Positions 1-50,818 of a stretch of DNA of 64,000 nt are shown here, piece after piece (the first letter of the stretch is position 1; the number at the start of each line of letters is the position of its first letter). Position numbers and translations under genes: made by a program. Below the pieces are notes generated by a model. It searched no databases, was not told where the DNA came from, and saw only the letters and a list, made by a program, of their open reading frames with translations. Source of the stretch: Psammoneis japonica. Its lineage: Eukaryota. The stretch lies in assembly GCA_008632985.1 (NCBI GenBank), contig QPGO01000239.1:1-64000 (forward strand). The letters run 5' to 3'.

Positions 1-12
1 GGGGCAACTCAC

Positions 13-16187: not shown

Positions 16188-16750
16188 CGTGGAGTCGTAG
16201 AAGCTCTCTCGTATGCGCGTAGAAGAAGGGAATGACAATGGAACGAGGCCTAGAGTTCAACGCCGTTAAGGGGAGGCAACAACGCGGTTGAGAATCATTG
16301 AATGCAATTGGACAGGAACGCCATGGTCAATCGTAGAGACGCGTGCACGATTCAAGAACTTACCGTTGAAAGAGACGAACGCAAAAACGCGATATGGAAG
16401 CGTGCTGTCGGAGCCGCTGTCGTCGTAGATGGAAGGGTTAGAAGATGAAATGCAACAGCCGAGTGTGTTGCCGATCTACAGAGTACGGGTTGGGAGTCAA
16501 TGACAAGAGCTGTGGATGCCGTCGTTCGTTGCTTTCTTTGACGAGGAGTCGTCAATGCACAAGAATCAGAATTGTGTGCTCGTTCCAGGACTGCCTTGTT
16601 TTGCATCGTTTGAATCCCTTCCACATCTTTGTACCAAGCACCCCGTGAGCTTTTACGAGTGCCGTGGGTTTCAGTATATAACCACGTTCATTGCCGACCT
16701 TGGTTTCTCAACCTGGTACAAAATCGCGTGGAATCTACGAATTCCGGCGC

Positions 16751-17218
16751 CAACGGCAAATCAGACTCTCTGCGTAGAATCCACAAGGATGAGTACCAAT
16801 TCCAAAAGTAACGGCAGATTCAAACCGTGGACCCTGTACAATCTACGGAGAATTGATACTGATTCCGATGATGACCGCTCTTGAAGCGAGTGACGCACGA
16901 TGCTGCGACAACGGCAGATCAAACTTTCTGCGTAGAATCCCCAACGTGACTACCAATTCCGAAAGTAACGGCAGGTTCAAATCATGCAATCTGTACAAAC
17001 TACGGAAGTGATACTGATTCCGATGATAACCGCTCTTGAAGCAAGTGACGCACGACGCTGCTGCAACGGCAAATCAAACGTTCTGCGTAGAATCCACAAT
17101 GATGAGCACCGATTCCGAAAGTAACGGCAGATTCAAACCATGGAACCAGTACAAACTACGCGAATGATACTGATTCCGACGACAACCGCTCTTGACGCGA
17201 GTGATGCACGACGACGTC
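16751..17218. repeat. Three tandem copies of a ~157-bp unit
   Basis: Units start CAACGGCA(A/G)ATCA at about 16751, 16909 and 17065 and share CTGCGTAGAATCC, AAAGTAACGGCAG, TGATACTGATTCCGA and ACCGCTCTTGA. Confidence 0.92.
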
Positions 17219-18410
17219 AGCATCATGTTGGCGGGCTTTCGATAGTGGAGGGAGATTTTGAACACGGCATTCTGTGAGCATCACAAATTGAAAATCATCG
17301 GCATGGAATCACTAGAGCATACAAAAACAAACAATAACAAGTCAACTTACGATTTGAGTCACTGGAGTTTATTTTTATTTTTCTAAGGTACAGTGCGGCG
17401 CTCGCTCTTCCGAAAGCTCTCTAGATACGCGGTTCACCTCGTAGTTTCACTCTCTCTCTCTAGCGATTTCGCTCAGTTTTAGGCCATTGTTTCTTCTCGA
17501 CTCCATCGCTGCAAACTCTTCACTCGTTGCATTAATGCGATATAAGCAATGTATGTTGTGACTGCTAGAGATCATCATCGTGCTCAACAACGTGGAAGAC
17601 TCCTCATAAGAAAAGGTCTGGCGCATGGCGTGTCTGTTGACGGTTGACGCACAGGAAGAAGAGACCACAACATTGTTTTTTTATCAAGTCACGAGAAACC
17701 GTGTGCGGTTGCTTGGAGTGGGTCATAACTGTATGCCGAACAAAATACTCCCGGTGTGACAGGGCGGGGATCGTTGCGCTTGTCGACGCCATTTCGCCGT
17801 TCATATCATGTGCGGTTCGTGGGTGTCATGGTGTGATGCTTGATACTCCAGGCTCCAGGCTCGGCATCGATCGCAGGCGCGCGCATTTGCACACTGGATA
17901 GCCTACACTGTACTGTCGTACGGTAGGGCCCTACACAGGTTCAAGGTACCCGCCATACCTACATTACGATACCTTGAGCACCCCCCTGGCTACGCCACTG
18001 TATGGCGGTCGGGCCGTCGGGCTTCTACTATGTTAGTTATGTAGAGTACAGTAGAGAGCACATAACTAACTACCGTACTAGCTAGAGACGAACTGGACAT
18101 GGCTGAAGTTTATGCATTGGATCTCCGTTCAACTTTGCTAAATTTAGAGCACTGTCGTACCGATCTCGACTTGAAATTCATCTTTCGCAACCACAAACAC
18201 GTTCTGGAACTCGATCCTTCTAGGTCAGGCACAATGACGACGATCATCGTACACTGTAAGTACCAAGGATTATTGCGATAAGGGAAAAATTGGCATTCAT
18301 TGAATCAAGCGCTTTGGCCATGGCAACTTGCCCGTGGAGAGCAAAAACAACGGTCGCAACTACAAGTGCAACGCCCACGCCGACAATGAGAATGCCTTCA
18401 AGATCCACGG

Positions 18411-18805
18411 GACCATTTAGGAAAGGCTGTAGCAGCTTCTTGGAACCGTCTAGGAAAGGCTTTAGCAGCTTCTTGGAACCGTCTAGGAAAGGCTGTAGCA
18501 GCTTCTTGGAAACCGTCTAGGAAAGGCTTTAGCAGCTTCCTGGAACCGTCTAGGAAAGGCTTTAGCACCCTCCTGGAACCGTCTAGGAAACGATGTAGCA
18601 GCTTCTTGGAACCGTCTAGGAAGGCTTCAGCAGCTTCTTGGAACCGTCTAGGAAACGATGTAGCCGCTTCTTGGAACCGTCTAGGAAAGGCTGAAGCAGC
18701 TTCTTGGAACCGTCTAGGAAAAGCTGTAGCAGCTTCTTGGAGCCGTCTAGGAAAGACTTTAGCAGATTCTTGGAATCGTCTAGGAAAGGCTGTGGCAGCT
18801 TCATG
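18411..18805. repeat. 33-bp minisatellite, about 12 copies
   Basis: Consensus TTCTTGGAACCGTCTAGGAAAGGCTGTAGCAGC; one +1 indel (~18511) and one -1 indel (~18621). Confidence 0.95.
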
Positions 18806-20537
18806 GGGTAAGGGTGGGAGTTCAGGGATCGGCAAAGTTTGCTTGCTTTGACGGGGTGTCGTCTTTGTCTCAAAGAAGAGCCGTGATAAGAAACTGTGTG
18901 CTCAGGCTTTTGTCGCCGCGTTCCACGTCTGGTCCGTTTCTGGGTCCTCAGTATACAAGCCTTGTGGGTTTTACGAGTTTCGGTGGCCACAAATCCGAAC
19001 CATGGTAATCGTATAAAGATCTCGAAGATGTCAGGTTTGACAAAACCCTTCCTGGCGGATAAACACGACTCGTCAGATTATGGGGAAACAGGAAGAAAAT
19101 TCTGAACTCGGTGAATGTAGAATTCTGAAATCGGGGGCATAGCGAAGTCGTTATGAATGCATTTTAAGCGCTGATGGTCAATAATGCCTTCTCGACACCA
19201 TCGTTGCAATTGTTTGTTTCGCGACGATAGTGTGATAGATGGACGTCGTGGTCGTGGACGGGCTTGAGAAATGAGAAATCCACATCTTGCTCAACGGGGA
19301 AGTCGCTCACAAAACTTCATGGTGTCTGATATTTCGCACCAATTCTTGATGTTAGAGAAGAGACCATACTTTTAGCAGCACGTTAAGGTGGTGTGCGGTA
19401 GATCGTCGTGCCAGATGCTGCCGTGTCGGTCATGGTGGATGCATGACGGGTCTGGGTCTGGGACGATGCGGAGCGCGAGCGGGCAAGCAGCAAGACGGTC
19501 AAAACGATAACGGCCCAAAAAATAGACGCGACCAACTCGATTGAGATCAATGACGCTGACGACGACGCTGTTTTGTGGGCTTCTGTCTGCCTCTCTCTAC
19601 GTACTCTCTACTCAAGCTACTCTCTAGAGAGTAGTAGCTAGCTACTCTAGTAGTAGAGAGCTAACTAGAGGTACTAAGAAGGAGCTAGAGTAGAGCTCTT
19701 CTGTACTAGTAGCTAGTAGAAGTAGGAAGAAGAGTAGCTACCGATCACTGTTTAGACGAAGAGAGGGAAGTAGGCTGAAGCGAAATTGATTCTCCATTTT
19801 TTTTTGTTTTAGTTTAAGAGTCTCTATCGTCCATCTCGTGTTCTGCGATTCTTTTTCGTTTTCATCACCTCTTTTGCCGGTCCAAGATTATTCCGGAAAA
19901 GACAGCTGTGTTGCCCCATAAAGCGAGTAATGTCGCTGCGGCAATACTGCCGTGGAGAGCCACAACAATCCCAACAGCTCCAACTGCAACGCTTGCAATG
20001 ACGTGAACACCGTCGAGACTCATGCTTGTCAAAGAGGATGATATGAAGTAGTCCAGGAAAGGGCGTCACAAATCGATGGGGTGGGAACTTGAGGGAGTCG
20101 AGCGATCGACAAAGAGTGCTTGGCTAGCTTCACTAGGTGTTGTTGGTGCGACAACGGTAAGTCGTCAAAAGTTGTGTCCTCTCGGGCTTTTTGTCGCGTT
20201 GTTTTGTGTGGTCTCGTTCGATTGAGCGGGTTGCCTTCCACGGCAATGATACGGATTGTGACGGTAACGGCAACCCCGAACGACGGCAATCGTACAGACA
20301 TCTCGAAGATGTCAGGTTTGGCGAAAACCCTCTCTCCCGGGTGATATGCACGACTCCGTCGTTGGTGAATTCCATCAAGCTCCTTTGAAATGATTGACAA
20401 GGTCAAGTCACTGTGTGGAAATTGAAGGCTGTTGCAAAGGCCACGTGTAGGAGAGAAAGCGGTCGCACCCTGGTGTTTCAATCACGTGTCGCCATCGACG
20501 CCGGTCCATTGAAAGCTCTTGCTCCCTCGTCCGTTCA

Positions 20538-24865: not shown

Positions 24866-25196
24866 CGTTATATTGTTTCGTTTCCGTTCAGAGTCTTGCG
24901 GACAAGCTGTCAGCAACTTTATTGCTACCTATCTGTTGCTGTTGCTGTTGCTGCTTTCAGGATGATTCTGAAACAATCTCAAAATCTGCTGAAAATGCAA
25001 TGGAAATCGGCAAACTGCAAATTGCGCAAGAATAGCGCTGAAATTGCATGATCTCATCCTCTCGCTTTCAACTTTTATTGCTTGGGACGTCTTCATCCAA
25101 TCCCCCTACCGGCATCCATAATGGAGAGTGATTCATTTCATTGCTATTTTTTAGATAAGTCGTTATGATATACGAGTAGATATACTTGCACTTCAA

Positions 25197-26039
25197 CTAG
25201 GCCCTTATTTTCAACACCTCCACGTCCCAAATAGTCGAAGCAGGAAACGGTGGCTGCGAGGCAAAACCAGACAGCTTCCTCTTGTAGCTTTCAATCGTTG
25301 CCTTCCCCCGAGCTGTAGTAGGTTCTGGTTTCCAATTTGACGTCTCGAATCCAACGCTCGGAGGGAGTAGAATCCTTCTACGTTCCCCTCGCTTCATCCC
25401 CACAAGAGCTTCTTCAATACCCTGTGGAATGTCTCGCTTTCCCAGCTGTACACGCAAACTGTCAAGGCCCAAATCAGATTGCATTTTTCCGCCAATGTTT
25501 ACCTTCTCAAAGCCAAATCCTTTGCTATACATGTATCCAGCGGATGCCATGTTGATAGAGTAAATGATTTCCAGTGCAGAATCCTTTCTAACGCGATCCT
25601 CTCCGGTGCCGCTCCGTACAATTTTGTAGCTAACTCCGTTGTCAAGAGAAACCGTAGGATTTTGTCGCTGTGCTTCCTCTGCCTTTTGTTCTCCAATCTC
25701 CCGACACGATTCGATATCTGTGCACTGTGTCGCCGACGCTGGGGCGACAGTACGGCAGAAAAGGCTTGAAAAAGTGACGAGAGCCATTTGCGACAGAGAC
25801 GAGCGGCGGCTGCTGATTGCGACACTTTTGTCTTCGTTTGTGTCGTGATCAATCGCACTTTCCGCCGTTGATGAAGATTTTCCGATCCTTTCAACTGTAG
25901 TCACAGTTAGCCTTTCGCCAGAATAATCGAGGCCGAGCAACTCGTTATTTTTGAAAGAGCGCACTGCAAAGGGGAGAGCAAAATTCCAAGTCGCGCACAA
26001 ACTCAACACGAACAGTGAGACTTGCAACAAAGCCATCAT
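25197..26039 (-). CDS. FKBP-type peptidyl-prolyl isomerase, probably thylakoid lumen
   Basis: FKBP motifs GTG..V....L.I.Y, IPQGIEEALVGMKRGERRRILLPP.VGF and WDVEVL; signal peptide, then SRR twin-arginine, hydrophobic stretch and ASA cleavage site. Confidence 0.9.
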   Translation of the reverse strand: MMALLQVSLFVLSLCATWNFALPFAVRSFKNNELLGLDYSGERLTVTTVERIGKSSSTAESAIDHDTNEDKSVAISSRRSSLSQMALVTFSSLFCRTVAPASATQCTDIESCREIGEQKAEEAQRQNPTVSLDNGVSYKIVRSGTGEDRVRKDSALEIIYSINMASAGYMYSKGFGFEKVNIGGKMQSDLGLDSLRVQLGKRDIPQGIEEALVGMKRGERRRILLPPSVGFETSNWKPEPTTARGKATIESYKRKLSGFASQPPFPASTIWDVEVLKIRA

Positions 26040-26358
26040 TGGTGATACTAAACACAAGTCGGCAGCAAAGGATTTTATGAGACGATCGTTGTAGTTTATG
26101 ATGTATTGAGAGGCTCTTCGGAGAAATGAAGTGGAAACATCATGCATCATCGGACAAATACCGGTACGCTCGGTACTGTATCTTGATCTACGATCTACAG
26201 TACGAGGTGGTGCTACCGTATGACGGGGGTCGCGCCACACGAACGCAAAGCACGACTGAAGCAATTCTTGTATTTGCCGATTTCTCAACGCTCACTTTTA
26301 CAGCCGTTCAACGGACAACACAATCTTCAATCTGAAATCGTCGCCTTGCTAATGTACT

Positions 26359-26965
26359 TGTCGCGTGTGGTGATATGTCCACGTAGGCGATGTACTAGTT
26401 GATTCAATGGTTAAGACATTAAAGTGCCCACTGAGCGAGCGAGATGGTAAAGAGGCTTACCGGTAACCGTCAGGCAGTATGACGGCATCTCATCTATATA
26501 TGGAGCTCGCACTTTGGGTAGGATACATGACATGGTGAGATTCCTACATAGCTTCCTGGCACAGCGGATGCAAGACGAGGTCTGAGCAGCTGAAAGTTCT
26601 GATTGGCGGTGAAGTCAAAAGAGGTCGAAGGTTCGAAACTCGAAAGAGACTTTCTGTTCGAAGGGATGAGAAGGAGCGGTGTACAGACCGGTTCTCTGAC
26701 TTAGGAATCAGGAATCTCAGAGCAACCGACTTGACATAGGAACGAGGAGATCGTTGTGAACGAAGAACATTGAAGTCACTAGTAAGGAGGATGTCGCGTG
26801 TGGTGATATGTCCACGTAGGCGATGTACTAGTTGATTCAATGGTTAAGACATTAAAGTGCCCACTGAGCGAGCGAGATGGTAAAGAGGCTTACCGGTAAC
26901 CGTCAGGCAGTATGACGGCATCTCATCTATATATGGAGCTCGCACTTTGGGTAGGATACATGACA
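26359..26965 (+). mobile_element. TRIM-like non-autonomous LTR retroelement (607 bp)
   Basis: Two identical 174-bp direct repeats (26359-26532, 26792-26965) bounded by TGT...ACA; TGG-starting PBS-like site right after LTR1; purine tract AGTAAGGAGGA right before LTR2; 259-bp non-coding interior; flanks TGTACT / TGTGCT. Confidence 0.88.
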
Positions 26966-27032
26966 TGTGCTGTACTCATTTTCGACTCTAGCAGTCTCTA
27001 GGCAACGCGTAATGCGTGTATCGGCACATGCA

Positions 27033-28304
27033 ATGAAGACCTTTCCAACAGCAACAGCTGTCATCATTATTTTTTTCGGTCAAACAGCACTCTGGTCTCA
27101 GTTGCACCAGCATGCGCGCTATGAAGCAACGGTCTTTCACTTGCACCGTGATGCTTCCTTGTTGTTCCCGGAGCACTGCACAAACAGATCGGTCTTTGAC
27201 ATCTCTCCGGTTTTTGAGGGAAGCACAGCTGAAAGAGACCATCTGAGTGCATCTGACGCAACGGTTGCCACTCAATTTCACATCAACCCGACCAATCTGC
27301 AACGTTTTCTTGACGTTTTGACTCGGTGGGATGGGCCAACATCCGTTGCGGCGTGTGTCGATCAAGAGCATCTCGACTGTGGGATGAAACGTTTGACGCA
27401 GTTTTTTGCCACTCACCGCCATTTCTTGCAGACGAAGACTGTTGGCTTCCACCTTGTCACAGACAAAAGACTCAAGCCTGATGGCTCCGAACTTCTGCAT
27501 CCAATCAACATGCTTCGCAACATTGCAATTGAGCATGTGAAGACCGACCACATGTTGAGCCTTGACATTGACTTCATTCCCTCGCTTGAATCGCACGCTC
27601 CAATCCAGAAGCATCTGCAAAGAAACAAGTGTCTTCGGAACAAGACAGCTTTAATCATGCCAGCCTTTCAACGAAGGCTTTCAAAGGGCGAGCATGATTG
27701 CAGCCTCAACGCATCACACATTCCGCCAACGAAGGAAAAACCAGTTCGCGCCATGCAGCAGCAGCCGGGCATTTGCCGTCCGTTCAACGGGAAATCAAAA
27801 CCGGCTGGCCATGGACCAACCGATTTCAAAATGTGGGTGAACTCCACGGCGGCATGCCATGTTGAGTGCAGGCTTGATTTCGAGCCACACTTTGTTTTGC
27901 ATGCACAAGATCCATTGCCACCATTTTGGGAGCACTTTGCTGGCTACGGTAGAAACAAATTGTCGTGGGCAGAAGAGCTCGCCCGTGCTGGTTGCCAATT
28001 TGATGTTGCCCATGACGTCTTTCTAATCCACATCAATCATTCCTCTCTCGGCAGCAGGCGTTCAAAACGTGTGCTGCAAAAGAACAAGGAAGAATGCAGA
28101 CGTCATTTCAAGCCGCATCTGAAAACTCAGTGTCCTTCCCATTGCGTTGAGGTTCCATGGCCTAAAGATGGAAAGTGGCACACTGCCAACATCGTCAGAG
28201 TGAACAATGATGGAACATGTGATGTTCAGTTTGATGCCGATGGCACTTTCCAACCCAACACAACAAAGAGCCACATCAGGCCATTCGGGGGGAGGGACAC
28301 CTAG
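27033..28304 (+). pseudogene. Glycosyltransferase family 49 (LARGE/B4GAT1-like) with C-terminal Tudor-like domain; ORF open but hypermutated
   Basis: WDGPTSVA, HPINMLRNIA, LDIDFIPS, FEPHFVL, FAGYGRNK and FLIHINH match GT49 motifs; positions expected to be Tyr read His or Cys. Confidence 0.8.
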
Positions 28305-31300
28305 AGCGCAGCTCAAAATGGGATTCAACAAATCAAAGACAATGAGCCATAGATTGGAACTTTCTCGATGATGAATGAGAGTTCTAAAATGTGACTCTTG
28401 GCCAGCACGTCCGCGAAATTTTCAGGATTGTGTCTACGAACGCACACAAAAATGTGTTTCTTCAATGGAAATGTTTAAATGGGGGTCACCTGCTTGCCAC
28501 TTTACTGCAATTGGCTCGCGCGCTCAAAACGTTCTGTGCATGGACCAACAGCACCAGAGTGCTGAGCAAGGGATGATGCGTTTTGTTCAAAGAAAAGGTC
28601 GTCTGCTTGCCTCTTGACACTGATGGGTGGGTGACAAATTTTGTGTGTGTGAAGCAATGAGGGTGGTTCTTTGGCAAATTTTCATTTCGTTCTCGCGATT
28701 TTGAATTTTAGTGCCATGAAGTGGAGACTTGGTGGAAAACGCACTTTTTTTTCAAGTGCCAACCTAATGACAGCTTGCAAGATGTGCACATTCCCATCAT
28801 GACTGTGTTTGCGTGTGCCACAAGTTTGTGCCACATTGTCATTGGTGCTGGCAGAGCTGCCTAGAGTGCGGGGCCATTGAGTGGTGCAGCAAAAAAAATG
28901 ATGGCAGAGTCGTCAGCTTGCATGATTTTCATGCAGTGGCTGGCTGAAGATGTGGTTGACCCAAGGTGACAGCACCCAAAATTAGACCAGTGCATGGCCC
29001 AGCCACACTGGCTGTGCTCCACCTTCCTTGCAGCTGGTCTGCAGAAAAAAAACTGCATCTGTGCACATGCCTCTCAAACAGCAGGTTGCTCCAGCGGCCA
29101 TGAGGTGCCCCAAAAATCTGCCCAAGGATGCTGCAAGACAAAAGTTGCCATCAGCAAATGAGTCGACTTACAAGATTCTGCCCCAGTTGCTTCCATGTCA
29201 AAGTCTCTTGGCTGCACCAGAGCAGCCAGGCTGAAGCAGAAGTGCCTGACATGTTCCTGTGGCAAGGGTGTTGCCAGCATCAAAGAGATCATGCAAGAGC
29301 CAAAGTCTCCACCCTTGTTGCCTTGTGCAAAAATGGTGCTTTTGCATGAGACTTGGCAGCCTGTGCAGTTGATCACATTTTGCCACATGGACATCCCCAT
29401 GTCGGTGCTGCCAATGTCACTCCCATGTGGCCCAGCCAACCCCAAAAAATCAGCAAGATGATGCTGCTCTGGTGACAGTTTTTTGGGTTTCTTTGGGGAG
29501 GAAGGCTCTGCATCATCAAACTCATGAAATGGCAACTCTTCCTTGCCACGCTTGATGACTTTTACATTTTTGCTGACAACAAGCACACATTTTTCATTCT
29601 CAAGGAGAATGTCAAAATTGATTTGCTTGCCAGTGGTTGAGTTTCTGGCTTTGGTGGTTCCACAGAGAAGTGCTCAGTTTCCCACCACTTTTTGGGGTGC
29701 ACTGCCTCTGTGTGTCTGCTGTGGGGGCACAAAGCACTTGCCAATTCCTGCTTGGCCACTGCCAGTGCTGGTGAGCTTCTTTTTCTTTCTTGAAGTTGCA
29801 GCATGTGTTTTGAAGATCTGTTGCAGCTGCCATTGCTTGCTGGTGGGCTTGCATCTCCCTTGCAGTCATTGTTGCACTGCACACATGCTCCAGGAGTGAC
29901 AAAATTTGGCTTGCCTGCTTCGTTTTGTTGCCCGGGCACATCACCTCTCTCCAAAGTTGGGGTTGCACAAGTTGTCATCAAAGGAGGTGGAACAACTGCA
30001 TCAGGTGGAGAAGCTGTGGAACGAGCTTCAACAGGGCCGCCGGCCGGGAGTGTTCACATCAGACGCCATGGTTGGTTCATGCAAAAACAATTGTTTGATG
30101 CTCCGCCATGAAATTGGCGCAATGACATTGACAAAAACTTGCAAGATTTTGAAGTTTCTTGCCACACACTCCTCTTTTGTTGAATGTCACCTTGCACTTG
30201 AGCAACAATCAGAAGCCTGAAGAACTCTCCAGCTGGCTGGCCAGAGAAAAAGTCACACAGATTTTACAAAAATGACTGTGTCAAAATGGGTGACCACCAG
30301 CACTCTTTTCCCAAATGTCCAACCGGTCAACATGAGGTTGCTTTTTGTCCATTCTATGTTGACTCTGCTTTCCTCATTTGGTGCATGGGTTTCTTTTTTG
30401 TCCATCATGCATCGCTTGTTGAACATTGCTTGCTTGTTGCATGTGGGTTCATGTTTTGTCCATCCTGTGCTGCTGGAGATGCAGGACTCTGTTGCCAGCT
30501 TTTTGCTTCTATCAATTTAATCATGACCACCTGTCCACTGCTTTTTCAGCATGTGCAGCACTGTGCATGCAGCATTTTCTTGCTTGTGTGTGCTTCCCTC
30601 CCCACCAGCCTTGCTCACCCACACTCTGTGCCTGCCTGCATGGCCTCTCCAGTGTCATGTTTTCCCCACACACACCAACATCCCTCCAATGTTGCTCAAC
30701 TCACCAATCTCTTTGCTGTGGGGCCAGTGTCCAGTCCACCAGGTTTTTTCCTCAATTGAGATGGCAAAACCCACCTCCATTGAGGTGGGCAAAATGCATT
30801 CAGGTGAGCTGGCTGAACTGAAACAAGTCATTCTCCAGATGCATCAAGATCAGAACACACGTTTGAAGTTGCTTGAAGAACAACAACACCCAGCAGGAAC
30901 AAGACAAAAGGTTGCAATTGCTGGAAGCACAGCACCAGCCATCTGTGCTCTGTGCTCCAGATGCAACAGGACTGCCAAACTCAGCTCAACAATTTGATGG
31001 CTCAATTCCAGGAGTTCCTCCAATGCAACTGTGACCAATGTCACTGAAAACAAATCAGATTTTCTTTGGGTTGGGACAAGTCATCTTCACTGCCTCTGTT
31101 GTGCAATGCAGATCAAGGTTCTGTCTCACAGTCTTCCTTTGAGGAAGCAGCAGGGCCACACCATGAGTGAGGATTCTTCCTCACATGTGTTGCAGGCCAC
31201 TGCTCAGCAGCAAACCCCCTCAGATGTGTGTCCTCCTTCCTTGCACATGGCTGCCCAGCAATTTCACAATGTTCTCAATGGCCGACAGTGTGCGCCTCAG

Positions 31301-32299
31301 CTCCCCAGACCATTGATTGCTCCACCTTAAAGGACAATGACAAAATGGGTGATCCCATGGGACCAAAGGCTCTAGACACTGCTCAAATGCATGCATTCAA
31401 TGCCAACAGATGTTCTTTTGACAACCTTGGAGGTGACTTCAACTCACATTGTCAAGTTGTCAACAAAATGCAAGCAGACGTCATCTCACATCTGAAACTT
31501 GTTTAGACAGCATGACTCAGCCCCAAATCTCTCAACCTTGTGGATCAGTTGCACAAAACTCCCTGCACCATGGGCAAATTGCTTTGTCCATGTCTTCCAT
31601 CCCTTTCACCACACCTCACAATCTGGCCAGCACTGCCATCATGTCCTGCAACTTGATTGCTGTCAGATGCTGCAACAAACAGTTGGACCCTTTGGAACAT
31701 TGATCCATGCAAGTCTTTGATGGAACACAAGGTGGACAGGTTGTGTTCCTTTTGTGTCACCAAGCATTCTCCAACAGCACTTCAACTGCTGGCAAGACCA
31801 TCACATGTGCTCAACAAATCAACTTGCTCTGCCAACAAGGCCATCATGCTCAGCCCAAACCAAGATGAGCCTTCTTCACTGATCTTGCTTGCATCCTCAA
31901 ATCATTGTTGGATGGACCCAATCATGAGGTCATTGTCTTTGAAGACTTCACAACACAGACTTTTGCAATGATGCAAATCCCCTGGTGCACATGGTCAGCC
32001 AATGTGAACTTTCCAACATTGTGTTTCACCATCTGTGGGATGTGAACTTTGCCACCTGCCTGCATGGCTCTTAACACTTGGACTTTGTTTTGGCAACTCC
32101 TGGTGCCTTGTGGGCTGTCTGTCAATGTGGTTGCAAATTGTTTGGTTGTCAGATGTCTTTAGATCACTGTGCACACTTTGTTGACTTTGAAACTGAGGTG
32201 TTGTTTGAGAACTCCTCTGTTGACATTCCTCAGTCTTCCTGCAGGTCACTTCAGTTGTCTTTGTGGTGGGTTCAAGGCATGGTCTGAACCCACATCCAC

Positions 32300-35200
32300 T
32301 TCCCTCAAATTTGGTCTTCATTTGGGACACTAGAAAGCTGTGCATGCAAAACATCAAGACTCCTCTGAAGCAGACAATCAAGGAATTCCTGCAGCCATCC
32401 ACACAGAACTTGATGTCATTCAAACTGTGCAGACTGTTTGCCTCAATCTCTTGTGTTGGGCTCTCAAGTGGGGTCATTCATGCAATCAATGGAGAGACAT
32501 TGTCAACATTGTGATCTTCAAGGAGCCTGGTGACAACAAAATGCACCAACTTAAGTGATTCACACACACAAAACAGATTTTCAATTGACCACCAGTGTGA
32601 AATGGCAAGCTCTGGCACAACACATGGAACACCATCATTTCTTTGTCCCAGACACACATGGAACCCAAGCCTTTTTCCACGCCCAAACTCCAGCATTTTT
32701 GGAAGTGTCAATGCTGGAAATTTCAAGAGCATCCTGAAAAACATCAATTGCAAGTGTCAATGACTGCACCTCCTGCTGCAACGGTGGTCTGCCAGTGCTT
32801 GTGTCAATCTTTTTGGTCAGCATGGGCATGGAACCTTGCAAGGTGGCAGCAGCAATTGACGCCATCTACCTTGCCCGATGCTGGCTGTTGTGACCCTTTG
32901 GGCCTGTCTGAATCTTTTTACTCTCACTTTCCTGACTCTCCAATTTGTGGAACAGGACAAGGCAGTGGCAACTCCCCATTTCATTGGAACAACCTGTGCA
33001 GTCTCTTGTTTGACATCTTCAGCTCCAAGGCCTGCAGTGCATTCTTTGAATCCCCCAATGGACCCCATCAGCTGAACATTTTCATGCATGGATGCATTGA
33101 CAAAACACACATCAAAACAGGTCAATGACTTCCAAGCATTGCTCAACCTCCCACTGATGAATTGGCCTTGAGACTGCAGCATGACAACCAGTTGTGGTGT
33201 GATCTGCTCCATGCAAGTGGGCATGAGCTGGAACTGCCCAAGTGTTCCTTTCACATGACAGAATGGGAGTTCGCCACATTTGTGGCAAACTGAGTCTCTG
33301 TCCCTGCAACCCAGACCTGGACATTGAAATGGTTTCTGCTTGCCACTCCTCTTCCAGGTGCAGTGCTCAATTGTCAGTCTGCACTCCCCACAAAACTCTT
33401 GGCCATTGCATGTCTCTAGCTGACACACTGAAAAAGCAGTTTCAAGTGCCAAAAGATGAGAGCAACAGCAAGGCTTTGTTCATGCACTCCATCCCACTTG
33501 AACATTCTGAATTGTGGAGGTGCTGTCATGCATGTTGCCTGCTGTCTGTCAACTTTGTGTTGTTGGCCAACTCTCATTTCAGGAGCAAAGACAAGTTAAA
33601 GACACAACAGAGAGCCATGTGTGTGATGATCTTTGCAAAGTGTGGCCACAACAGGAACACCAAGTGCCTCATGTTGTGTGGCCCTCAGTCTCTTGGAGGT
33701 GGGGGCTTTCAGTCCCTTGACATGGAGCATGGAGTTGCTCAACTTCAACAACCACTTTCCAACCACCAACATGGACCCAGCTGCAACTGGGAACTGGAGC
33801 AAGCTTCCTTTCAGATGTTGGCATCCCCCATCTGCATTGTGAATCTTTGTGGTTTGCATCCATGTGCTCCTTTTTGCATCACCCAGGTGGGACTTTTCCA
33901 TTGTCAGATCATGGTGCCCTGCCTCTCCAGCATGACAATGATCAGTGCTTGATGGATGTTGCCCTTGAATTCACAGTCTTTTCCTCCCTGGAAATAAAAT
34001 GGATCAATTGTTGCTGGTCATGACTCAAGGTCCTCATGGTGTCAAATGTTGCTTCAGCCAATGGTTGGAACTGGATGAATCCAAGATGTGTGGAGATCCA
34101 ACCTCCCTCACAGCAGTGTCAGTGCTCTCAAAACCATTGAACAGGAGTGCCCCTGCCATCAGGCTTAGATTCCATGGATCCATCTGTGTGAGATCTTGGG
34201 CCATCCTGATTCCACATGATTGCACACCCCTCTTGGCAGCTGGTTGCACCCTCCATCCAAAATGTGCATGCACAGGCTTTGGCACATTTTCTTTTCCCAA
34301 AAAATCACATCTGTGTGCATGCTCTCCTTTTCTGGTTTTGATTTGTTCTTGGCTCAAAACAAGGTGACAACTTCTGTGCAAGAGATGGAAACTGTCCCAG
34401 CCCCTTCAGAGGCATTCTTCCCCATTGAGATCACTTTTGTGCAGGACAGCCAGTGTCAGCACCTGCTGCATGGTCTGCACCTCCTGCAGCTGGAAACTCC
34501 AGTGCCTGTCCCAGACTTCTTTCAGGATCACCCACAGGCTCTTTCCTCAGTGGGAGTCCATTTTTGTTTTCAGACCTGGAGTTCCATGTGCCCCTTGATG
34601 ATCTTGTTGACTGCTTGGTGTCTGGCAGAACTGTGGCTGGAAGCAATGGTTCTGTGCTTCAACCAAGTGCAACATTTGGCTGGACCATCACAACCAACTG
34701 TCAACACTTGGTTGATTGTGCTGGACCCATTTTTGGAAGGCTGCCTTTTTCTTGCCAAGCCAAGGTGCATGGTGTCCTTTCTTTGTTGAAAGTTCTTCTG
34801 TGCAGGCTTCTTGAATTCTGCAAGGTGTCCGTCATGTTGGGATGGACAACTGGTGCAACAACAAGGCCCCAGTCAGAGTGCTTCTCTGCTTGTCTGGCTC
34901 TTGCCCTGCCATCAATCCTGCAAATTTTTTGGAGCTAGAGACAGATTTCTATTTTGAACAACACAACACCAATGTTTTGTCCTCAGACTGGGATGTGGCA
35001 AACAAAGTTCACCAGTCATCCCTTGCAATTAAAGCAGCACTGGTTTTGGACTCCCCTGGCTGTGCGCCAACCATGGAGTGGGTCAAAGGACATCAAGATC
35101 AATGTGTGCCATTGGCACCCCTTCCTCTCAATGCCAGAGTTGATGTTTGGGCAGACAACATGGCAGGCAGCAGGCCGGCATCAGGGTCAGTCCTCTTCTG

Positions 35201-36200
35201 ATGCAATGATTGTCCCCCCACTCTCTCACAGCCAATCTTGTCTTCATCCATCAGATGGCAGAGTGACATGCTGCAGCTGCAGCTGCAGCTCTTTTGTGGA
35301 ATGCATGTGCAAATGCAAAGAATGGAATGAGTCCATTTTGGACAAAATTGACTGGTCCGTTCATGCAGCCCTGATCAGCAGATTTTCAAAGCAACACATT
35401 TCTGTGATCAAGTTGATTTGCAAACTTCTGCCCATGAACAAAATTGCCACCAGACATGATCCAGTGCACCCTCATCATTGCCTTGCTTGTGAGCACCCTG
35501 TGGAAGATCATGATCATGTCCTCAACAAATGCCCAGAAAGTGAGGCCTGGCAAAGAAAATTCTTGCAAGGTCTCCAGCAATGCTGTGACAAGATCAGCAC
35601 AATTCCTCCACTGCTCAATTTTCTCTTGTCCTCTTTAGAAGCACAGTTTCAAGACTGGATGGTCTGCACAACAGATCCACTCCCTCAGTTTTGCCATTTG
35701 TGGAGTGCACAGATGGACATTGGATGGCGCCAAGTGTTCAACGGCTGACATTCCAAGCTGTGGAATGCCTTTCAAGAGATGCACCTCAGGGAGTCGGGAC
35801 TCTCAGTGCAGTGCCAGAAGGTAAATTAACAGCCTCCAGTGTGGGCAGTGCAAATTGGATCACACACATGGAGATCTTAGTGAGAACTGTGGGAGGATCA
35901 TAACTTGGCAGTTCACAGACATGATGCAGACACCTGCAAATCAGCACAGTGCCTGCAGGCTGAGGTGGAACCAACTGCAACATGCCACAGAAGACAAGAC
36001 TGCTTGGCAAAGGACAGAGAAATTCTGATGGACTCTGCTGAGGATCATCTGACCTGCACCACTTCCAGGACATTTGGCTGGATTGTCATGGTGAAACCAA
36101 CACTCAAAGAGAGCACAGAAAGCAGGCAAAGTGCTCTGTGCTTCACGGCACTTGCTCTGTTGCCAGTTGTTTTGGCGGTTAAAAATTGGGCCTTTTTTTG
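32300..36200 (+). mobile_element. Degenerate non-LTR retrotransposon with RT, RNase H and zinc knuckle (diatom Ambal-like)
   Basis: Fragments WRDIVNIVIFKEPG, PICGTGQGSGNSP..W, GCIDKT (YxDD site), KCGHNRN...LCGPQSLGGGGF, AGSNGSV (DGS), EWVKGHQD...LNARVD, CLAC...EDHDHVL.KC, IGWRQVFNG. The 5' part may extend to ~30 kb. Confidence 0.8.
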
Positions 36201-37269
36201 AGGTGGGCATGAAATGCACTGCAGACAGGACATGACAGGCCACATTGGCAAATGACATGAGAGACAATGATGTCAGTTCCATTGTGGAAAGCAGTCTCTG
36301 CAACAACAACAAAGCTGTTGCAACACTTGCAACACCTTGCTTTGCATGCACAATGCACTTGCCTGTGCCAAATTTGAATGTTGAGTTCTGCAAATTAGCC
36401 ACAAATGTGGGATGCAAAAATGGCCCATCGCATGTTCACAAGAACTCTTTGACACACTTTCAACCACTGCATTGTCTCACATTTAAATGTGACACAATGG
36501 AAATCTCCTGGCTCAACCCCAAACTAGACCCAAAGTCACCCAGCTCCTTTCGTTGTCACTTCCGGGGACACAGCACACATTTTGCCATGATTCAGTGCCA
36601 CTCTCACACACATTTCTGTTTCTGTGCCCCTCACAAGTGATGAATGAAGTGGGTGATTCCACAGCATGCTTGGCACACATGCATTGATTGACATGGTGTC
36701 ACATCACATCTCTTTTGAGGAGCAGCAGTCATTTTGTTCCAGCTCAGCAACCAAGAAAAATGCATGGTCCCAAGCGCCCATGTCAACAAGACCTTGGACA
36801 AAGTGACAGTTCATGATTTGGGAAGCCCTTGGGCCTTTCTCTCCCACTCCAGCAATGGTTGTCATTTGGTGCATTGTTTGAGCAGAGTGGGTGGCACCAC
36901 ACAATGTCAAAGCACAGCTGAAGTGCAAAAGCAAAATTTCAAAATCCAGCCCCCAATTTTGGAGTTTGCCAAATGTTTTCTAAAACTGGCAAAAGCTGAA
37001 TCTCAAGATCTTTTTTCTGATTTCCAAAGATCTGGGATCTGCTGCATCTGACAACCACTGTTGCCACCAACCAGAGCGGTGCCTGTCTGTGCCAACCACT
37101 TGCAACTTGTGTGCCAAGTTCATGGAGTTGCCCAGTCATCTTGTTGTCTGCTCCGTCTGTTGCATTCTTTCCCAAGAACAGCCAATTTTTCCTCACAAGT
37201 CCATTCAAATGTCAGCAGGCAATGATGGAACAAAAATGCAAATTTGTTGGATGATGTCAGGGTTGGAGA

Positions 37270-39260
37270 TGGTTTTTGCAGGACAGACAAAGTTGCAGCA
37301 GTGCAAGGTGCACTGGCAATTGTGGACAACATGGCAAGTTTGCATCACAACTTGGATTGAGTTGTGCATTTTGCACACACTTTTTGGCTTCTGCACCCAG
37401 TTGACATGGTGATGACAGCTGGTGGCATCAGCAGCAAATGTGTTTGCAAGCCATGTGGTGAGTTGAGAGACTGTGAGACAAAACGTGTGCCAGTCGGCAA
37501 GTCACAAAGCTCCAACACAGAAGCTGAAAAGTCATGGCACAATGCTCAAAGGAGTGGCATTGTTCAAGGGCTGGAAAGCCAAGCGGAATCCACAGAATGA
37601 GGGCTGGGAAGCTGAGAAGAATCTGCCAATGAGGGCTGAAAAGTCAACAGGAATCCAAAAGAAAAATGGCTGGGAGGTCAACAGGAATCCAAAGTTGTGC
37701 CTCTTGTCAGCAGATCACAGCAAATGAGCCAGCTGGGTGAGGGCAAAGAAACAATCTCTGGAGGGCCTTGCTGTCAAAAAAGCTGTCAAGGTTCTGCTAA
37801 AATGGGGTGTGGCAAGGTTGTGGTGTTGGGGTCAGTGACACAGAGAGCACACCTGTTGCCAAGCTTTGGAACTCCAACACAAATCCTGAAAAAGTTGGGT
37901 GAGGACACAGCTTGGTGCAGAAGCATGAAAGAATTGAACAAGTGGGTGCATGATGCCATTGTTGAATCAGGGTGACAGGCAGACAGATGCACGGACACCA
38001 TGAGGAAGATCCGTGAGTGTGTCAGAAGAATGTTTGGGCTGGAAATGCAGGCGTCAGTGTGTCCTTGAGGCAGGAGAGCATGCCAGGAGAGCTGGATTGT
38101 CTGCAGGGAGCAAGACACCATGTTGGAGAAGGACAAGGCAATCTGGGGTGAGAAATGTGATCACCATGTGAAACAGAGGGCAGCCCACAAGATGCAGAAG
38201 GCAAAGGCATTTGACACAATTGTGGGGCAAGAATGTGCAAAGGCAGTTTGTCATCACAAGCTTGAAGGAGTGACAGAGTTCATGAGTGGGACATGACAGC
38301 ACTGTTGGATGTTCTCAAGTTGTTTTTGTTCAATGCAAATGAGAAGAAAAACCCGCATGATGCATCCAGACAGTTGAGGCTTGGAAGCAGTTGGCACTCA
38401 TTGGTCAAGACAAAGGAGAGGTGCTTCAAGACCATCAAAATTGGTTTGTGAGTGTGGTGGAAATGGTGGAAATGTCTTGTGGTAGAATCATCCCAAAAGA
38501 AATCACCAAGAAAGAATGTGGGTTCAGCAAGGATGCTGATGATGCCCGGAGCAAAGAGAGGAACAAGTTGTCAGCAGCAGCAATGCCAACAGAAGATGCC
38601 AAGGACTGTTGGCATGTTGCCAAAGACCTGCATTGGCAGCACACATTGGGGATTGACATTTGTCCCAATTCAGCTGAGGAGGCACTGCAGGTGTTGGACA
38701 CAAGAAACCTGAGGGCACAAGATTTGCAGGAAGAAGATTGCATGCTGGAAGTGCAACAAGGTTGGACATCCAAGGAAGGATTGTCCTGACAGTGACCATT
38801 CATTGGCAGAGTCAGGCAGGAATTGTCAGAACAGCTGACATGGTGTTGGGTGGCATGGTTTCCAAGTGTGATCCTCCCATGCTCAATGCACATGCAGTCA
38901 AACAATTGATGTCTTTTGCAAAGGAGTGCATTGGAACATCAGAGGGTCAGAGGTGGTTTTTGCAGGACAGATGGACAAAGTTGCTGTGCAAGATGCACTG
39001 CAAACTTGTGTTTGTCACTCAGATTGAGTTGCAGGTTTTGTGCTCACTTTTTGGCTTCTGCATTAAGTTGGCATGGCAATGACACCCAGCAACATCAGTT
39101 GATGTGTTTGTGAGCCACACGGCAAGTCAGGAGATGGTGAGACTGAATGCACACCAGTTTTGGCAAGCTGTGGAGCTCCAACAAAACTGGCTTCAAAAGG
39201 CAAAAGAGAGATGGGGCAATGAAGCAAAAAACATGGAGTGCTGCTGCTGTGGAATGCATG
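37270..39260 (+). mobile_element. Degenerate Copia (CoDi-like) gag remnant flanked by diverged ~280-bp direct repeats (about 37270-37550 and 38955-39200)
   Basis: QDKGEVLQDHQNWF...VE..E..G...DL..QHTLGIDICPNSAEEALQVL resembles diatom Copia gag (Q..ES..DY..RF; QY.LG.D.YP.T...A); both repeats begin GGTTTTTGCAGGACAGA. Confidence 0.55.
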
Positions 39261-42200
39261 CACAGATCTGGAACTGCATTGACAGACATCACAAATGGGG
39301 CTCCAAGTCAGGCCATGCTCCCTTCTGTTTGATGACCAAGGTTCCAGAAAAGCCACAAGCATCAGAGCCAGCCTTGCTGTGTGCCCCCCCCCCCCCCCCC
39401 NCCCCCTGCACCCATCACTTCATTGTGCTGTCACTGTGATGAAAGGCTTTTTTGCCAAAATCTTCCCATTGCCACTCAAAGACACTGACCATCCAAACAG
39501 TTTGTCAGACTGTTTCATGGTTGGAGTTTGACCATGCTGCGGCTGTGTCCATGATGCAGATGCTGTCCTGTCATGGACAAACGCTGGTGCACTTCCTGTG
39601 AAATTGGCACTCTCATGATCACCTGCCTGCCACCACCAAGACCAGCCAACCCACTTCATCAAGACAAAGAGAGGCTCCAAGTTTGCTGCTTTGACTTGTC
39701 GGCTGACTGGACAACCCAACAGAACCCACACAACAAAGAGCTGCAGCTGTGCACCAAGACCCGGCCAGCATCCTTGCCACTGCTGGGGTCATTCAAGGAT
39801 GCTCCAACAGGGCCACAGTTGCTCCAAATCTGTTCAAGGACACCATGATGCTGAAGTTGTCATCATTGGCAGATTGGAGATTGGCTGACAAGAGTCTTTC
39901 CCAGCACTTGCTCCCATGTCAAAGTCTCTTGGCTGCAGCAAAACAGTCAGGCTGAAGCAGAAATGCCTAAAGCTCCAGCGGAAAGAACATTTCTGAGAGG
40001 TCAACAGAGAATCCAAATTTGTCCTCATCCCTTTGTCTGCAAACAATGCATTTGTGCAAGACCCAGCTGTCCATGCTGCTGTCAGCCACATCTCACCACT
40101 TGAACATCAACCCTGCATTTGTGCCACCAGCCATCTCCATCATTTAGAGCCAAGACTTTCCAATGGCTTCACTGATTGGCACAGTCCTTCCAACACTTGA
40201 CCCAGTTGCTCCCACATCTGGGTGGCTTCATTGAAGCAACGAACTGCAACAAACTGGGACAAGAAGTGGGCTCACCTGGTTGATGTGCTTCCACCACCAT
40301 GACTGTTTTGTCATGCAAAAGCATGGTCCAAAGCACTGCCATGTGCTGGCTGGAGTCAAACTTGACACAGTTGTGTCAGGAGTTGGACAAGGTGTGGGAT
40401 GAGGAGCTGTGGTTTAACATTTTTAGAAAAGCTGTTGGCAGTGCTCCTGGATTGGGAAAAGGAGTCACAGTTTTCATGGGAAAACATGTTGGATTCCTTG
40501 CTGTTAGACTCAGAGTAAAAGGTCATGGCATGGATTCAATCAAGTGCAGGTGGCTCAGCATCAGATGCGCATGTGGGTTGAGGCCCTGAGGACACATGTG
40601 CAGCTCTTGCCAACTTCTCAAAGATGTCATTTCCTGCAGCCTCATCTGTGGATTGAAGGGCTGCAGCACCAGCCATTCTTTGGCTGATGTGCTCTGAATG
40701 GGTTGAAAAACAAACCACATTCTTCTGCAACATCACAGTTGCCCTGAATTGTGCACAGACTTCTTGGCTGTGAATGACTTGCAAAGACAACTTCAACATC
40801 ATGCACTTCAAATGCTGGCAACTTCCAGAGCAAGAGAAGTCAGCTGTCAGCTGCACTGATGATGATGAGCAGCACTCCTGAAAAAGCCCTTGAAGTGTTG
40901 CTCATTTGCAGTGCTCCACAAGTCAGAGTCTGCTGCTTCATCAAATTCTGAAGCCATGCCATCTGAGCTTGTGACCAACCCAGTTGCTTGTTTGGCCTTG
41001 ATTTCCTGGCAAGGCTTGGTCACAATTGCAAACTTTGAGGTTTCATTTCTGGTGCCTCCTGTCATCTCCTCATCATTGTCAATTTTTCCATGTTTGCAGA
41101 TTTAGCTTGTTCATTTTCAACGTGAACCACTGCATCTCCAAAGTCAAGTGATGGGTGCATTGAACTCAAACCAGCATCCACTGAAACCTTCTTGTCCTCC
41201 ATGGGAGCTGAGTGGTGCACTGCCAGGGACAATCATGAAGAGACAACAATGTGTTGAGCATGCGGCAGTGCCTGACTTGTTGTGCTTTTAAACTTGGTCA
41301 ATGATGCAAAGAGCAGGGGCTTGATTTTGCCATTGTGGGCAAGCTTTTCCACCACCAGATCAAACTCAAAGCCAAACTTCAGTCAGGTCCACTCTTGCCT
41401 GAGAGCTTGATGAAACACATGGTTCACCCATTTTTCAATCATCCGGCACCCCTTGCAACATCCACATGTGAGGTGCAGGACAAAAAGGGTTGGAACCTGG
41501 AGGTCTTTCTGTCAGTGGGTTCAATCAGTGTTCAAAAAGATGTGCACGTGGGTGACAAGGATCTTGGTCAAACCAGACACTGGTCGACTGTCTTGTGCAC
41601 CCAGTGCAAAGTGCAAAACTCAATGCATGCCCTCACAGTGAGTTTTGTTGCTGCTTTTGGTGTGCCAGCCATTGCCATCAATGGCAAAATGAGACACCAG
41701 CACTCCCCAATGTCAGCTGCCATTGCAAGCAGCTGAGGTCAGCTTTTGCTGAATGATCTGTGGAAATGTTGCACCACAAGCACTGGAGTAGAAAAAAGTG
41801 ACACACATGAAAAAGGTGCTTGCAAAAAAGTGCACTTCCAACTTGTGTGTTCAAAAAAAGATGATTGCTGCTTTTTGTTTCCATTTAATGTGAGAAGTTG
41901 ATGGGGAAAATGGAAGGTCTTCATCTTGGTTGCTTGACAACAAGCTCTTTGCAGTTTGGACAAGCTGGAGTCCTCATGGTTGATGCTTGATGCTGCAGCA
42001 GGTGCTGTGCACCTCTTCGTGCTTGACCCTCTTTTTGCACTTCAGTCATTTGTCAAGTTCTGCAAGCATGGAGCTGTGCTGGTTTTATCTGGCTGTTTTT
42101 GTCTTGGATGGTTTGCACCTGGGTGGAATGTCAGTGCTGGGGAAGAGACAAGAGACAGTGTGCCAATCCACAAAATTCTTGCCCTCATCAAGGATGAAGA

Positions 42201-42379
42201 GCAGACTGACACATGGCTGAAAAATGATTTGTCAAGCCACAAAATGCATTTGATCTCCAAGAAGTGCAGTCCAGAGCTGGGGCAAGGGGCACTTTGTTTT
42301 TGACTGTGCAGCTCCATCCACCTCCTGATGTCAACAAAACTGGCAAGTCCAGAGACACACTGGCAAACTGAGCTGGCTG

Positions 42380-43020
42380 TCAAAGTTTGCTGCAACTCAC
42401 AACATGTGCTCTCTTTCACAACCTTCATTCATCCACCAGCATCTTTACAAGCATCAGATGCTTCCAGTCATTTGCAGTTTCCCACAATTTGTGCCAACAG
42501 CTCAGCCTCAAATTTGGCTGTCACATTCCCTGACCCCTCCCAACTTGGCCATTATTCTGCATTCCCAAGACAGTGGCTGCACCACTGCCCACACTCATTG
42601 TGGAGTGTTTTGACAGACACTGTCCAAAAACATTGCCAGCTGCAAAGGTGCCTTGGACAGATGTTTGTGCGCTGGTGCTGACAATTGCCTTCAAGCACCT
42701 AAGATGCTCCTCATCAAATTTGACCTCATCTTTCAAAAAGAAAGTGGATGGAGCATGTCCAGCGGCAACAAACAATGCTGCACCATCATTGACCTCACTT
42801 TCTTCCTTGGTTTTGACATCCATCAATGCAATGCCAGTGACAACCTTTGGCTGCTCAGTGATGAGATCAATGTCACTGCTTTCCCTGTCTGTTGCCTCTG
42901 CCATCTTTCCCAAAATTTCCTTTGCTGTGGCACTCCATTGAATGTTTGGCAGAGGGTGTTCAATGACTTGCAGAGCCAGCACTTTTGACTCCCCAAACAT
43001 GTCTCTTTGATGAACCAAAT
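42380..43020 (-). pseudogene. Mutated duplicate of the last exon of the thioredoxin reductase gene at 50819-51445
   Basis: Colinear nucleotide match (e.g. GCCAGTGACAACCTTTGGCTGCTCAGTG shared exactly); translation HQRDMF..SKVLA.QVIEHP...EQPKVVTG...GHAPSTFFLK...TSVQGTFAAGNV. Confidence 0.92.
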
Positions 43021-50440: not shown

Positions 50441-50818
50441 AAGTTAATGTCTGTCCACGAGCTTCTAGCAGTACGTAGAATCTTGCGCAAAGTTAAGTCT
50501 GACACGCTGGTTTTGGTCGAGGATAGTTCGCGTTTGAGTGGAATGTCGGCATGTCCGAGGACAGCTAGCATGCAAATGCACACTGATCTACGAAATTTTT
50601 GCTAGAGTGGAGGATGAAGGGTAGATCGACGCGTAGCTGAAAGATGATTTGTCGAACGACAAACGTATAGTGTTGAGAGCCAGGGTAAGGGGCATTTTAT
50701 TTTAGAATGTGCAATTCCTTCTACTTAATGTCGACAAAACTGTCGAGTCCGGAATCAATGCAGGTAAACTAAATCGGCTGTCTCTAATGAATTCGAGCCG
50801 CTCAAAATATACAAAACT

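Follow-up and report, generated by a model that had tools for sequence, protein, structure and literature searches.

Can a mutational process strip a cellular gene of nearly all its TpA dinucleotides, recode its tyrosines, and still leave the reading frame open? This question is raised by an open reading frame (ORF) for a glycosyltransferase of family GT49 at positions 27033 to 28304 (+) of a 64,000-nucleotide stretch of Psammoneis japonica DNA (GenBank assembly GCA_008632985.1, contig QPGO01000239.1, positions 1 to 64,000; here called the window). An original prediction, made from the DNA letters alone, had described a host gene whose Tyr codons were being erased by an A>G process that spread from a neighbouring nest of transposable elements (TEs) and left CpG intact. 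In this study, we compared the ORF with its homologues and with a second version of the locus in the same sample. One haplotype of this GT49 gene has probably been driven close to exhaustion by a regional, TpA-specific A:T>G:C hypermutation of the kind also seen in silent repeat islands.

Results

The ORF is open over 423 codons, and its translation holds the two Tyr that had been predicted (Y30 and Y305), together with 31 His and 13 Cys; all short motifs quoted in the original prediction occur in it. Between 27122 and 28304, six TpA are seen where 73.7 are expected from base composition (observed/expected ratio [o/e] of 0.08), at 27652, 27945, 27950, 28024, 28163 and 28302, and four of the six stand in YTAR context. 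The same segment keeps 57 CpG (o/e 0.77), which confirms the claim of a TpA-poor but CpG-bearing gene, and is rich in TG (o/e 1.48) and CA (o/e 1.57). Over the whole ORF, TpA o/e is 0.09, CpG o/e 0.77 and Tyr content 0.5%, and the 8 TpA in 1272 nt, which add 27068 and 27120 to the six above, compare with 1311 in 33,100 nt of normal window DNA (binomial P = 1.4e-13). In comparison, TpA o/e ranges from 0.39 to 0.64, CpG o/e from 0.70 to 1.19 and Tyr content from 0.9 to 4.7% in 16 other long ORFs, taken from parts of the window where TpA is normal.

By descent the ORF appears to be a member of family GT49 (LARGE/B4GAT1-type), but probably encodes an inactive enzyme. It matches the Pfam profile PF13896 (Glyco_transf_49) over profile positions 112 to 327 of 329 (E = 4e-34; 118.8 bits, cut-off 27), and the GT49 domain of human LARGE1 aligns with residues 73 to 338 (E = 5e-22). 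The DxD motif (D178, D180) and 14 other invariant columns of a 10-sequence alignment are present. A Tudor-like domain follows at the C terminus: its Agenet match in Pfam stays below threshold (E = 0.067; 14.1 bits, cut-off 27), and the last ~55 residues (~370 to 421) align to 107 Tudor-type repeat stretches in nine very long proteins, two of which were scanned with Pfam and contain Tudor_5/Agenet arrays (E of 1e-63 or lower). These matches agree with the label of a GT49/Tudor protein that the ORF had been given. A search of 1.84 billion representative proteins returned 2218 homologues at E <= 0.001, human LARGE1 included. None of the best 150 of these 2218 matches exceeded 42% identity, and no close orthologue was found among 10 word-indexed matches (best identity, 41%), so that the Tyr-column test described below rests on distant homologues and on the second version of the gene.

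For this test, the ORF was aligned with 136 homologue segments. Tyr is kept in none of the nine columns in which it is the consensus (frequency of at least 0.5). The ORF reads C108, H156, H173, F265, C275, C279, H286, C321 and H362 at these columns, i.e., His or Cys in eight of nine (4 Cys, 4 His), as had been claimed for the sites where Tyr was expected. Other conserved columns are kept in 68 of 90 cases (Fisher P = 1.2e-5), and at a consensus of at least 0.7 the figures are 0 of 3 for Tyr columns and 44 of 47 for non-Tyr columns. Three of the lost columns carry Tyr in 88 to 93% of the 136 homologues, six of the lost positions are Tyr in human LARGE1, and His or Cys is found at the ORF's consensus-Tyr columns in only 0 to 14% of homologues. 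Two aromatic consensus positions of the Tudor-like tail read H383 and C396. A single TA>CA/TG change explains 12 of the 42 mismatches at columns with a consensus of at least 0.4, and none of 15 control dinucleotide processes accounts for more than 4 of the 42.

The stretch was found in only three public runs, all from one sample of one study and none of them an RNA run. Comparison of the sample's short-read Logan contigs with window positions 25000 to 31000 revealed a second version of the gene. A contig of 8141 nt is the same as the window over 25000 to 26356 (0 differences), jumps from 26356 to 26970, and after this skip of 613 bases runs on to 27339 with 8 differences. At all 17 listed differences within the ORF (27104 to 27775), the window has G or C and the contig version A or T. 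Fourteen of the 17 are TG or CA in the window and TA in the contigs (P = 5e-4, binomial, against the share of G/C that lies in TG/CA), evenly divided between the strands (7 TG, 7 CA); the remaining three are A>G at N-A-T. By count over the covered stretches, 17 TpA stand in the other version, and 14 of these are gone from the window. The lone difference in CpG context (27353) is CpG in the window and CpA in the contig.

At the protein level, the window's H25, H27, C108, C116, C223 and C248 are all Tyr in the contig version, which further has Ile for T103, Leu for P237 and Val for A76 and A227; at positions 103, 108 and 237, it is the contig version that matches the homologue consensus. Since this less-mutated version occurs in the same sample, the direction of change can be set as A:T>G:C. 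Both versions are present at 27340 to 27395, with depths of 27.6 for the window version and 34.3 for the TA version, and because these sum to the single-copy depth of 59 to 66, they fit two alleles. The TA-bearing version is apparently unmutated, coexists with the window version and is probably the other allele. The predicted inactivation of a host gene could hold only in part: one version is recoded, but the organism keeps an apparently unmutated, Tyr-bearing one.

The TpA-exhausted, CpG-intact segment that differs between the versions covers approximately 27040 to 28240. TpA are dense up to 27019, sensitive contexts being retained at 26973 (GTAC) and 27019 (GTAT), and mutation is first established at 27104, which places the boundary within ~70 bp of the ATG at 27033. 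From this boundary, TpA stays at an o/e of at most 0.2 through the gene and on into a repeat nest of 14 kb. The left neighbourhood is unaffected, with 0 differences over 25000 to 26356 on the same contig, and the change is thus regionally confined. Downstream, the contigs show no difference from the window over 28245 to 28446 and one over 28508 to 31000; the depletion of the nest is accordingly present in the short reads as well.

The bases skipped by the contig form an insertion at 26357 to 26969 which, as contig skip, depth and self-BLAST indicate, is multicopy, TpA-rich and absent from the unmutated version. It ends 63 bp upstream of the GT49 ATG and is bounded by perfect 176-bp direct repeats (26359 to 26534 and 26792 to 26967; 176/176 in self-BLAST) around a non-coding middle of 257 bp. 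Word depth within it is 195 to 895, compared with ~59 in the flanks (10 to 15 times). GTACT stands on both sides of the insertion, yet the empty site also has two GTACT; for the insertion, a miniature element with terminal repeats and a tandem structure are both conceivable. Two haplotypes can hence be described, one with the insertion and the mutated gene (the window) and one with neither the insertion nor the mutations, and the insertion is the only other cis difference known between them. Spread from the nest, the route originally predicted, agrees with the continuity of the TpA-poor block from gene to nest, but the change is haplotype specific and stops within ~70 bp of the ATG, beside an insertion that only the mutated haplotype carries. 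We regard such spread as a plausible route and as one possible reading.

The nest itself (28751 to 43000) is exhausted of both TpA (o/e 0.01 to 0.09) and CpG (o/e 0.02 to 0.18), with TG and CA at an o/e of about 1.8 to 2.0. We classed 128 non-overlapping 500-bp segments of the window by TpA and CpG. Forty-six are low in both; 12 TpA-poor segments keep CpG, 8 at an intermediate and 4 at a normal level (those starting at 1001, 27001, 27501 and 28001), and CpG-poor segments with normal TpA number 0 of 128. This nested pattern fits the claim of a TpA process that can be separated from the decay of 5-methylcytosine (5mC) at CpG and runs ahead of it. Alternatively, the TpA process may simply have a wider domain than CpG decay.

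The contexts of surviving TpA suggest a more specific target. In the nest, 35 of 52 survivors are YTAR and none is RTAY, compared with 242 and 400, respectively, of 1311 TpA in normal window DNA (chi-square P = 3e-25 for survivors pooled over six TpA-poor blocks). A tentative motif would be T-A-Y, an A between a T on its 5' side and a pyrimidine on its 3' side, in either strand; in that case RTAY would hold two targets, YTAY and RTAR one each and YTAR none. Among the differences between the alleles, the changed base is the A preceding a pyrimidine in all five asymmetric contexts (YTAY, RTAR), and all four Tyr codons with a pyrimidine before them changed to Cys. The bulk tetranucleotide ratio (YTGY+RCAR)/(YCAY+RTGR) lends support in three islands (1.43 to 1.97) and weak support in a fourth (1.29), normal DNA having 1.16.

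Enumeration of codons showed that TA>TG/CA cannot turn any sense codon into a stop. The change turns TAA into TGA or CAA and TAG into TGG or CAG, unlike CpG decay, which converts CGA into a TGA stop. Recoding without the creation of stops, as had been proposed, is therefore proven as codon logic, and since no stop codons arise in this way, the open frame is no evidence of function.

Discussion

We consider it likely that one haplotype of the GT49 gene has been nearly exhausted by the same regional TpA-specific A:T>G:C hypermutation that acted on the silent repeat islands. This reading builds on the dinucleotide signature, its polarity, its restriction to one version, its limit near the start codon and the intact CpG. 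Several points weigh against it. For the second version, the only source is a set of short Logan contigs from a single sample, which may be the source of the window's own assembly; 79 of the 119 differing places lie outside the listing, so that this version's full sequence, right limit and TpA content are incomplete. Over 27700 to 27775 only the TA version is seen, at a depth of 52.7 that is nearer full than half depth; a 1:1 allelic state is thus not established along the whole gene. One run, X1, contains 0.90 of the stretch's sampled words, and another, X3, contributed no contig to the comparison. The insertion has intact TpA and identical repeats and may postdate the hypermutation, in which case it was not its cause. 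Support for the T-A-Y motif is mixed, with the GT49 block at a tetranucleotide ratio of 1.09 and island 7000 to 11000 at 1.14, next to the normal 1.16. A TE or viral identity of the islands, such as the original prediction assumed for the nest, is unsupported by protein homology, given that a Pfam scan of 76 ORFs of at least 110 aa in the TpA-poor islands gave one weak, sub-threshold match to RVT_1.

A comparable process has been described by Mettrop et al. (bioRxiv 10.64898/2026.01.13.699255), whose main text reports TpA-specific hypermutation of integrated DNA of nucleocytoplasmic large DNA viruses (NCLDV) and virophages in the chlorarachniophyte Bigelowiella natans. According to that text, 230 of 231 mutations in two hypermutable viral regions were A>G or T>C, and the GC-biased ones all fell on TpA; the text also gives 211 mutations, 6169 TpA and 3132 line-generations. 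An ADAT2-like adenine deaminase was proposed there, without proof. In the preprint, the changes are almost exclusively A>G or T>C and fall on TpA in either strand, which becomes TpG or CpA; they act regionally and leave TpA-poor clusters rich in CpA and TpG. The GT49 locus is alike in this respect: all 17 listed differences are A:T>G:C, 14 of them on TpA, and they are regionally confined. Unlike the viral inserts described for B. natans, and unlike TE DNA, the target here is a cellular gene with 2218 homologues that lies beside ordinary genes; the host is a probable diatom, and one of two coexisting versions was hit. TpA loss is near complete here (o/e 0.01 to 0.1), as opposed to the Rho of 0.45 given in the preprint for TpA in the NCLDV region of B. 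natans, and nesting with CpG exhaustion as well as a preference for a 3' pyrimidine are visible. The main text of the preprint does not contain the words CpG, host gene, tyrosine, stop codon, flanking or heterozyg-, but host-type genes may be among the 324 low-TpA coding sequences that it mentions. Our literature search for the signature returned this preprint only and nothing for diatoms.

Could a functional gene instead avoid TpA and Tyr through its codon or amino-acid usage, or under selection against UA-cleaving RNases? Its 423 open codons, its normal CpG and the retention of the DxD motif and of 44 of the 47 non-Tyr residues that are strongly conserved would suit such a gene, with the qualification that an open frame is expected anyway under TA>TG/CA. 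It would, however, have lost Tyr from all nine consensus-Tyr columns, including three with Tyr in 88 to 93% of homologues and six shared with LARGE1, in exchange for residues that just 0 to 14% of homologues have at these columns. The sample also holds a version with TA and Tyr, and the 16 other long ORFs of the window never fall below a TpA o/e of 0.39, so we attach almost no probability to this explanation. An artefact of assembly or base calling, in which base modification at the TpA of silent DNA led long-read base callers to read G or C falsely, would account for the contigs that show the TA version only (27104 to 27264 and 27700 to 27775) and could be in keeping with the 0.90 of sampled words contained in run X1. 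Yet the window version is itself in the short-read contig set at 27340 to 27395 (depth 27.6 beside 34.3), and the contig over 28508 to 31000 reproduces the TpA- and CpG-exhausted nest with one difference. Where a heterozygous bubble occurs, Logan contigs retain a single branch, which explains places with one version without misreading, and an artefact is improbable.

The changed tract starts no more than ~70 bp from the ATG and stops close to the stop codon, and ADAR enzymes favour a 5' U (as cited in bioRxiv 10.64898/2026.01.13.699255). Both facts would suit an origin at the RNA level, on which view the tract would equal the transcription unit, with an ADAR-like enzyme hyper-editing a transcript (A-to-I at UA) that was then reverse transcribed and replaced one allele by gene conversion. 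Editing of a sense RNA predicts A>G on the coding strand only, but the changes are strand balanced (7 TG and 7 CA; 4 Cys and 4 His), ~14 kb of adjoining non-genic DNA is depleted likewise on both strands, and neither a poly(A) tract nor any other retrocopy hallmark was found from 28305 on; we judge this origin very improbable. A trigger by duplication, resembling repeat-induced point mutation (RIP), would mean that the GT49 copy became a target through the existence of a second genomic copy, irrespective of its neighbourhood. Consistent with this, a duplicated thioredoxin-reductase fragment within the nest is exhausted too, and the nest shares decayed similarity with the island at 47 to 50 kb. 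The functional thioredoxin-reductase partner is nevertheless unmutated, with its Tyr columns kept and a TpA o/e of 0.42. The left flank attached to the TA-bearing GT49 version is the same, showing 0 differences, the depth of this version suits an allele and not a paralogue, and the hypermutated NCLDV region of B. natans is single-copy according to the same preprint. Duplication as the trigger is accordingly unlikely.

Regional hypermutation of one haplotype, the reading that we prefer, would involve deamination of adenine in DNA at 5'-T-A, preferentially with a 3' pyrimidine and on either strand. Its targeting could lie in a cis-acting domain of silent chromatin that reaches from the nest across the gene in this haplotype only, and the extension of such a domain might have been triggered by the insertion, which would separate the gene from its promoter. 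The recoded protein is presumably non-functional, because eight conserved Tyr of the catalytic domain and two aromatic positions of the Tudor-like tail have been lost. Arithmetic on the B. natans figures of the preprint extrapolates to a rate of ~1e-5 per TpA per generation. If this cross-species extrapolation, which is no measurement on the present locus, were to apply, a time of order 2e5 generations would be needed for the loss of ~85% of TpA. With the genome-wide rate of 3.5e-10 likewise taken from B. natans, the 1357-bp flank would be expected to show ~0.2 differences, with which the 0 seen are compatible.

A wider generalization seems to us possible, if rather doubtful. Diatom-like algae may have a chromatin-guided, cis-acting system of T-A-Y adenine deamination that acts on any DNA lying within a silent domain, even on a single allele of a cellular gene after insertion of a mobile element has severed its promoter, and that completes well before 5mC decay; together with the chlorarachniophyte case, it would be a widespread primary genome-defence mutator of SAR (stramenopiles, alveolates and Rhizaria) eukaryotes. 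If so, genes would be killed silently through recoding of Tyr, Ile, Val and Leu, with reading frames that stay open or even lengthen.

With LARGE1 and B4GAT1 (CAZy family GT49), the encoded protein shares the GT49 domain, the DxD motif and most invariant residues; it differs in the conserved Tyr replaced by His or Cys and in the fused tail of Tudor type. Other known mutators resemble the process in part. RIP of ascomycete fungi changes C to T at CpA, creating TpA and stop codons. It is likewise a regional, dinucleotide-tied transition hypermutation of repeats, able to spill over into host genes that lie adjacent or are duplicated, but here the direction is reversed, TpA being destroyed and stops not created, and the unmutated partner of the duplicated thioredoxin-reductase segment speaks against a trigger by duplication. 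Decay of 5mC also leaves an excess of TpG and CpA in silent repeats, and is evidently active in the nest as well, whereas the ORF has a CpG o/e of 0.77 and 0 of 17 listed differences is a CpG lost in the window copy. A deaminase-type editing with a 5'-neighbour preference, aimed at repeats and foreign nucleic acid, recalls the ADAR and APOBEC enzymes that hyper-edit or hypermutate retroelements and viruses in animals; these act on RNA or single-stranded cDNA in a strand-specific manner, in contrast to the chromosomal, strand-symmetric changes found here in a non-retroelement gene in situ.

The first report of TpA-specific hypermutation dates from April 2026 and, in the main text of the B. natans preprint, concerns one chlorarachniophyte and viral inserts only. 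The GT49 locus adds a second, distant lineage, probably a diatom, and a cellular gene as the victim. It also offers a built-in control, since mutated and intact versions of one gene occur in the same sample with the 613-bp insertion as the other cis difference, which makes the question of targeting testable by allele-specific assays. T-A-Y is a candidate extended motif for comparison with candidate deaminases. For annotation, the relevant property is that TA>TG/CA removes two of the three stops and adds none; as a consequence, dead genes and repeats in such genomes keep long frames and get annotated as genes. Tyr-poor, His- and Cys-rich 'orphan' proteins may stem from TpA hypermutation.

Other features of the window

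The divergent neighbour on the left of the GT49 gene, at 25197 to 26288 (-), encodes a plastid-type FKBP isomerase (Pfam FKBP_C). It is unaffected (TpA o/e 0.58, CpG o/e 1.12) and lies in the part where contig and window are identical (25000 to 26356). To the right, a downstream margin (28245 to 28750) is moderately poor in TpA and CpG (7 TpA and 18 CpG in 506 nt) and the same in the contigs. Within it, 28556 to 28661 shows 75.6% similarity to 46579 to 46694, a hint that the margins of both islands share an element.

ORFs tested between 29077 and 42985 in the nest had no Pfam match. A segment at 30628 to 30828 has a word depth of ~300, against ~66 around it, and many loose contig ends, as expected of a high-copy repeat piece, and a single N stands at 39401 within the exhausted nest. 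The right end of the nest (40182 to 43026) is a decayed duplicate of 47726 to 51444, i.e., of the island at 47 to 50 kb plus the 3' part of a thioredoxin-reductase gene. This last part (42393 to 43018, -) has 75.5% DNA identity to 50836 to 51444, and in tblastn it shows in-frame stops and none of four Tyr columns kept (C, S, S, C). The functional copy reads Y, Y, Y, F at those columns and has a TpA o/e of 0.42. Among the 144 substitutions of the duplicate, 39 are of CpG type and 16 of TpA type. The functional copy (50822 to 52874, -) is a thioredoxin/thioredoxin-reductase fusion gene with ~62% identity to a protein of the diatom Cylindrotheca fusiformis, and contains an apparent short intron with in-frame stops near 52.7 kb. 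In a protein atlas, the thioredoxin-reductase ORF matched mostly bacterial clusters and one diatom cluster; that the organism is probably a diatom is read from the Cylindrotheca match, the plastid-type FKBP, a protein with four HA domains and a desaturase whose best match (49%) shows that it is not a protein on record from B. natans.

A second island at 1 to 4500 is exhausted of TpA (o/e 0.02 to 0.23) and has partly lost CpG (o/e 0.22 to 0.69). It holds an 86% direct repeat (1035 to 1490 and 1913 to 2357), in which 49 of 53 substitutions are transitions, mostly CG against CA/TG; CpG decay is thus still running in this island, where TpA is already gone. The TpA- and CpG-poor island at 8001 to 11000 is strongly asymmetric between the strands, with a GC skew of +0.38 to +0.42, a CA o/e of 2.2 to 2.5 and a TG o/e of 1.4 to 1.5. 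The sub-threshold RVT_1 match lies in this island (ORF 8611 to 9786, -; E = 1.6e-4) and is the sole reverse-transcriptase-like ORF. Tandem repeat arrays in TpA-normal DNA occupy 16747 to 17213 (unit of ~157 bp) and 18409 to 18806 (~66 bp), with 85 to 90% identity. The window also encodes a protein with four HA domains (Pfam) and a fatty-acid desaturase whose best match has 49% identity.

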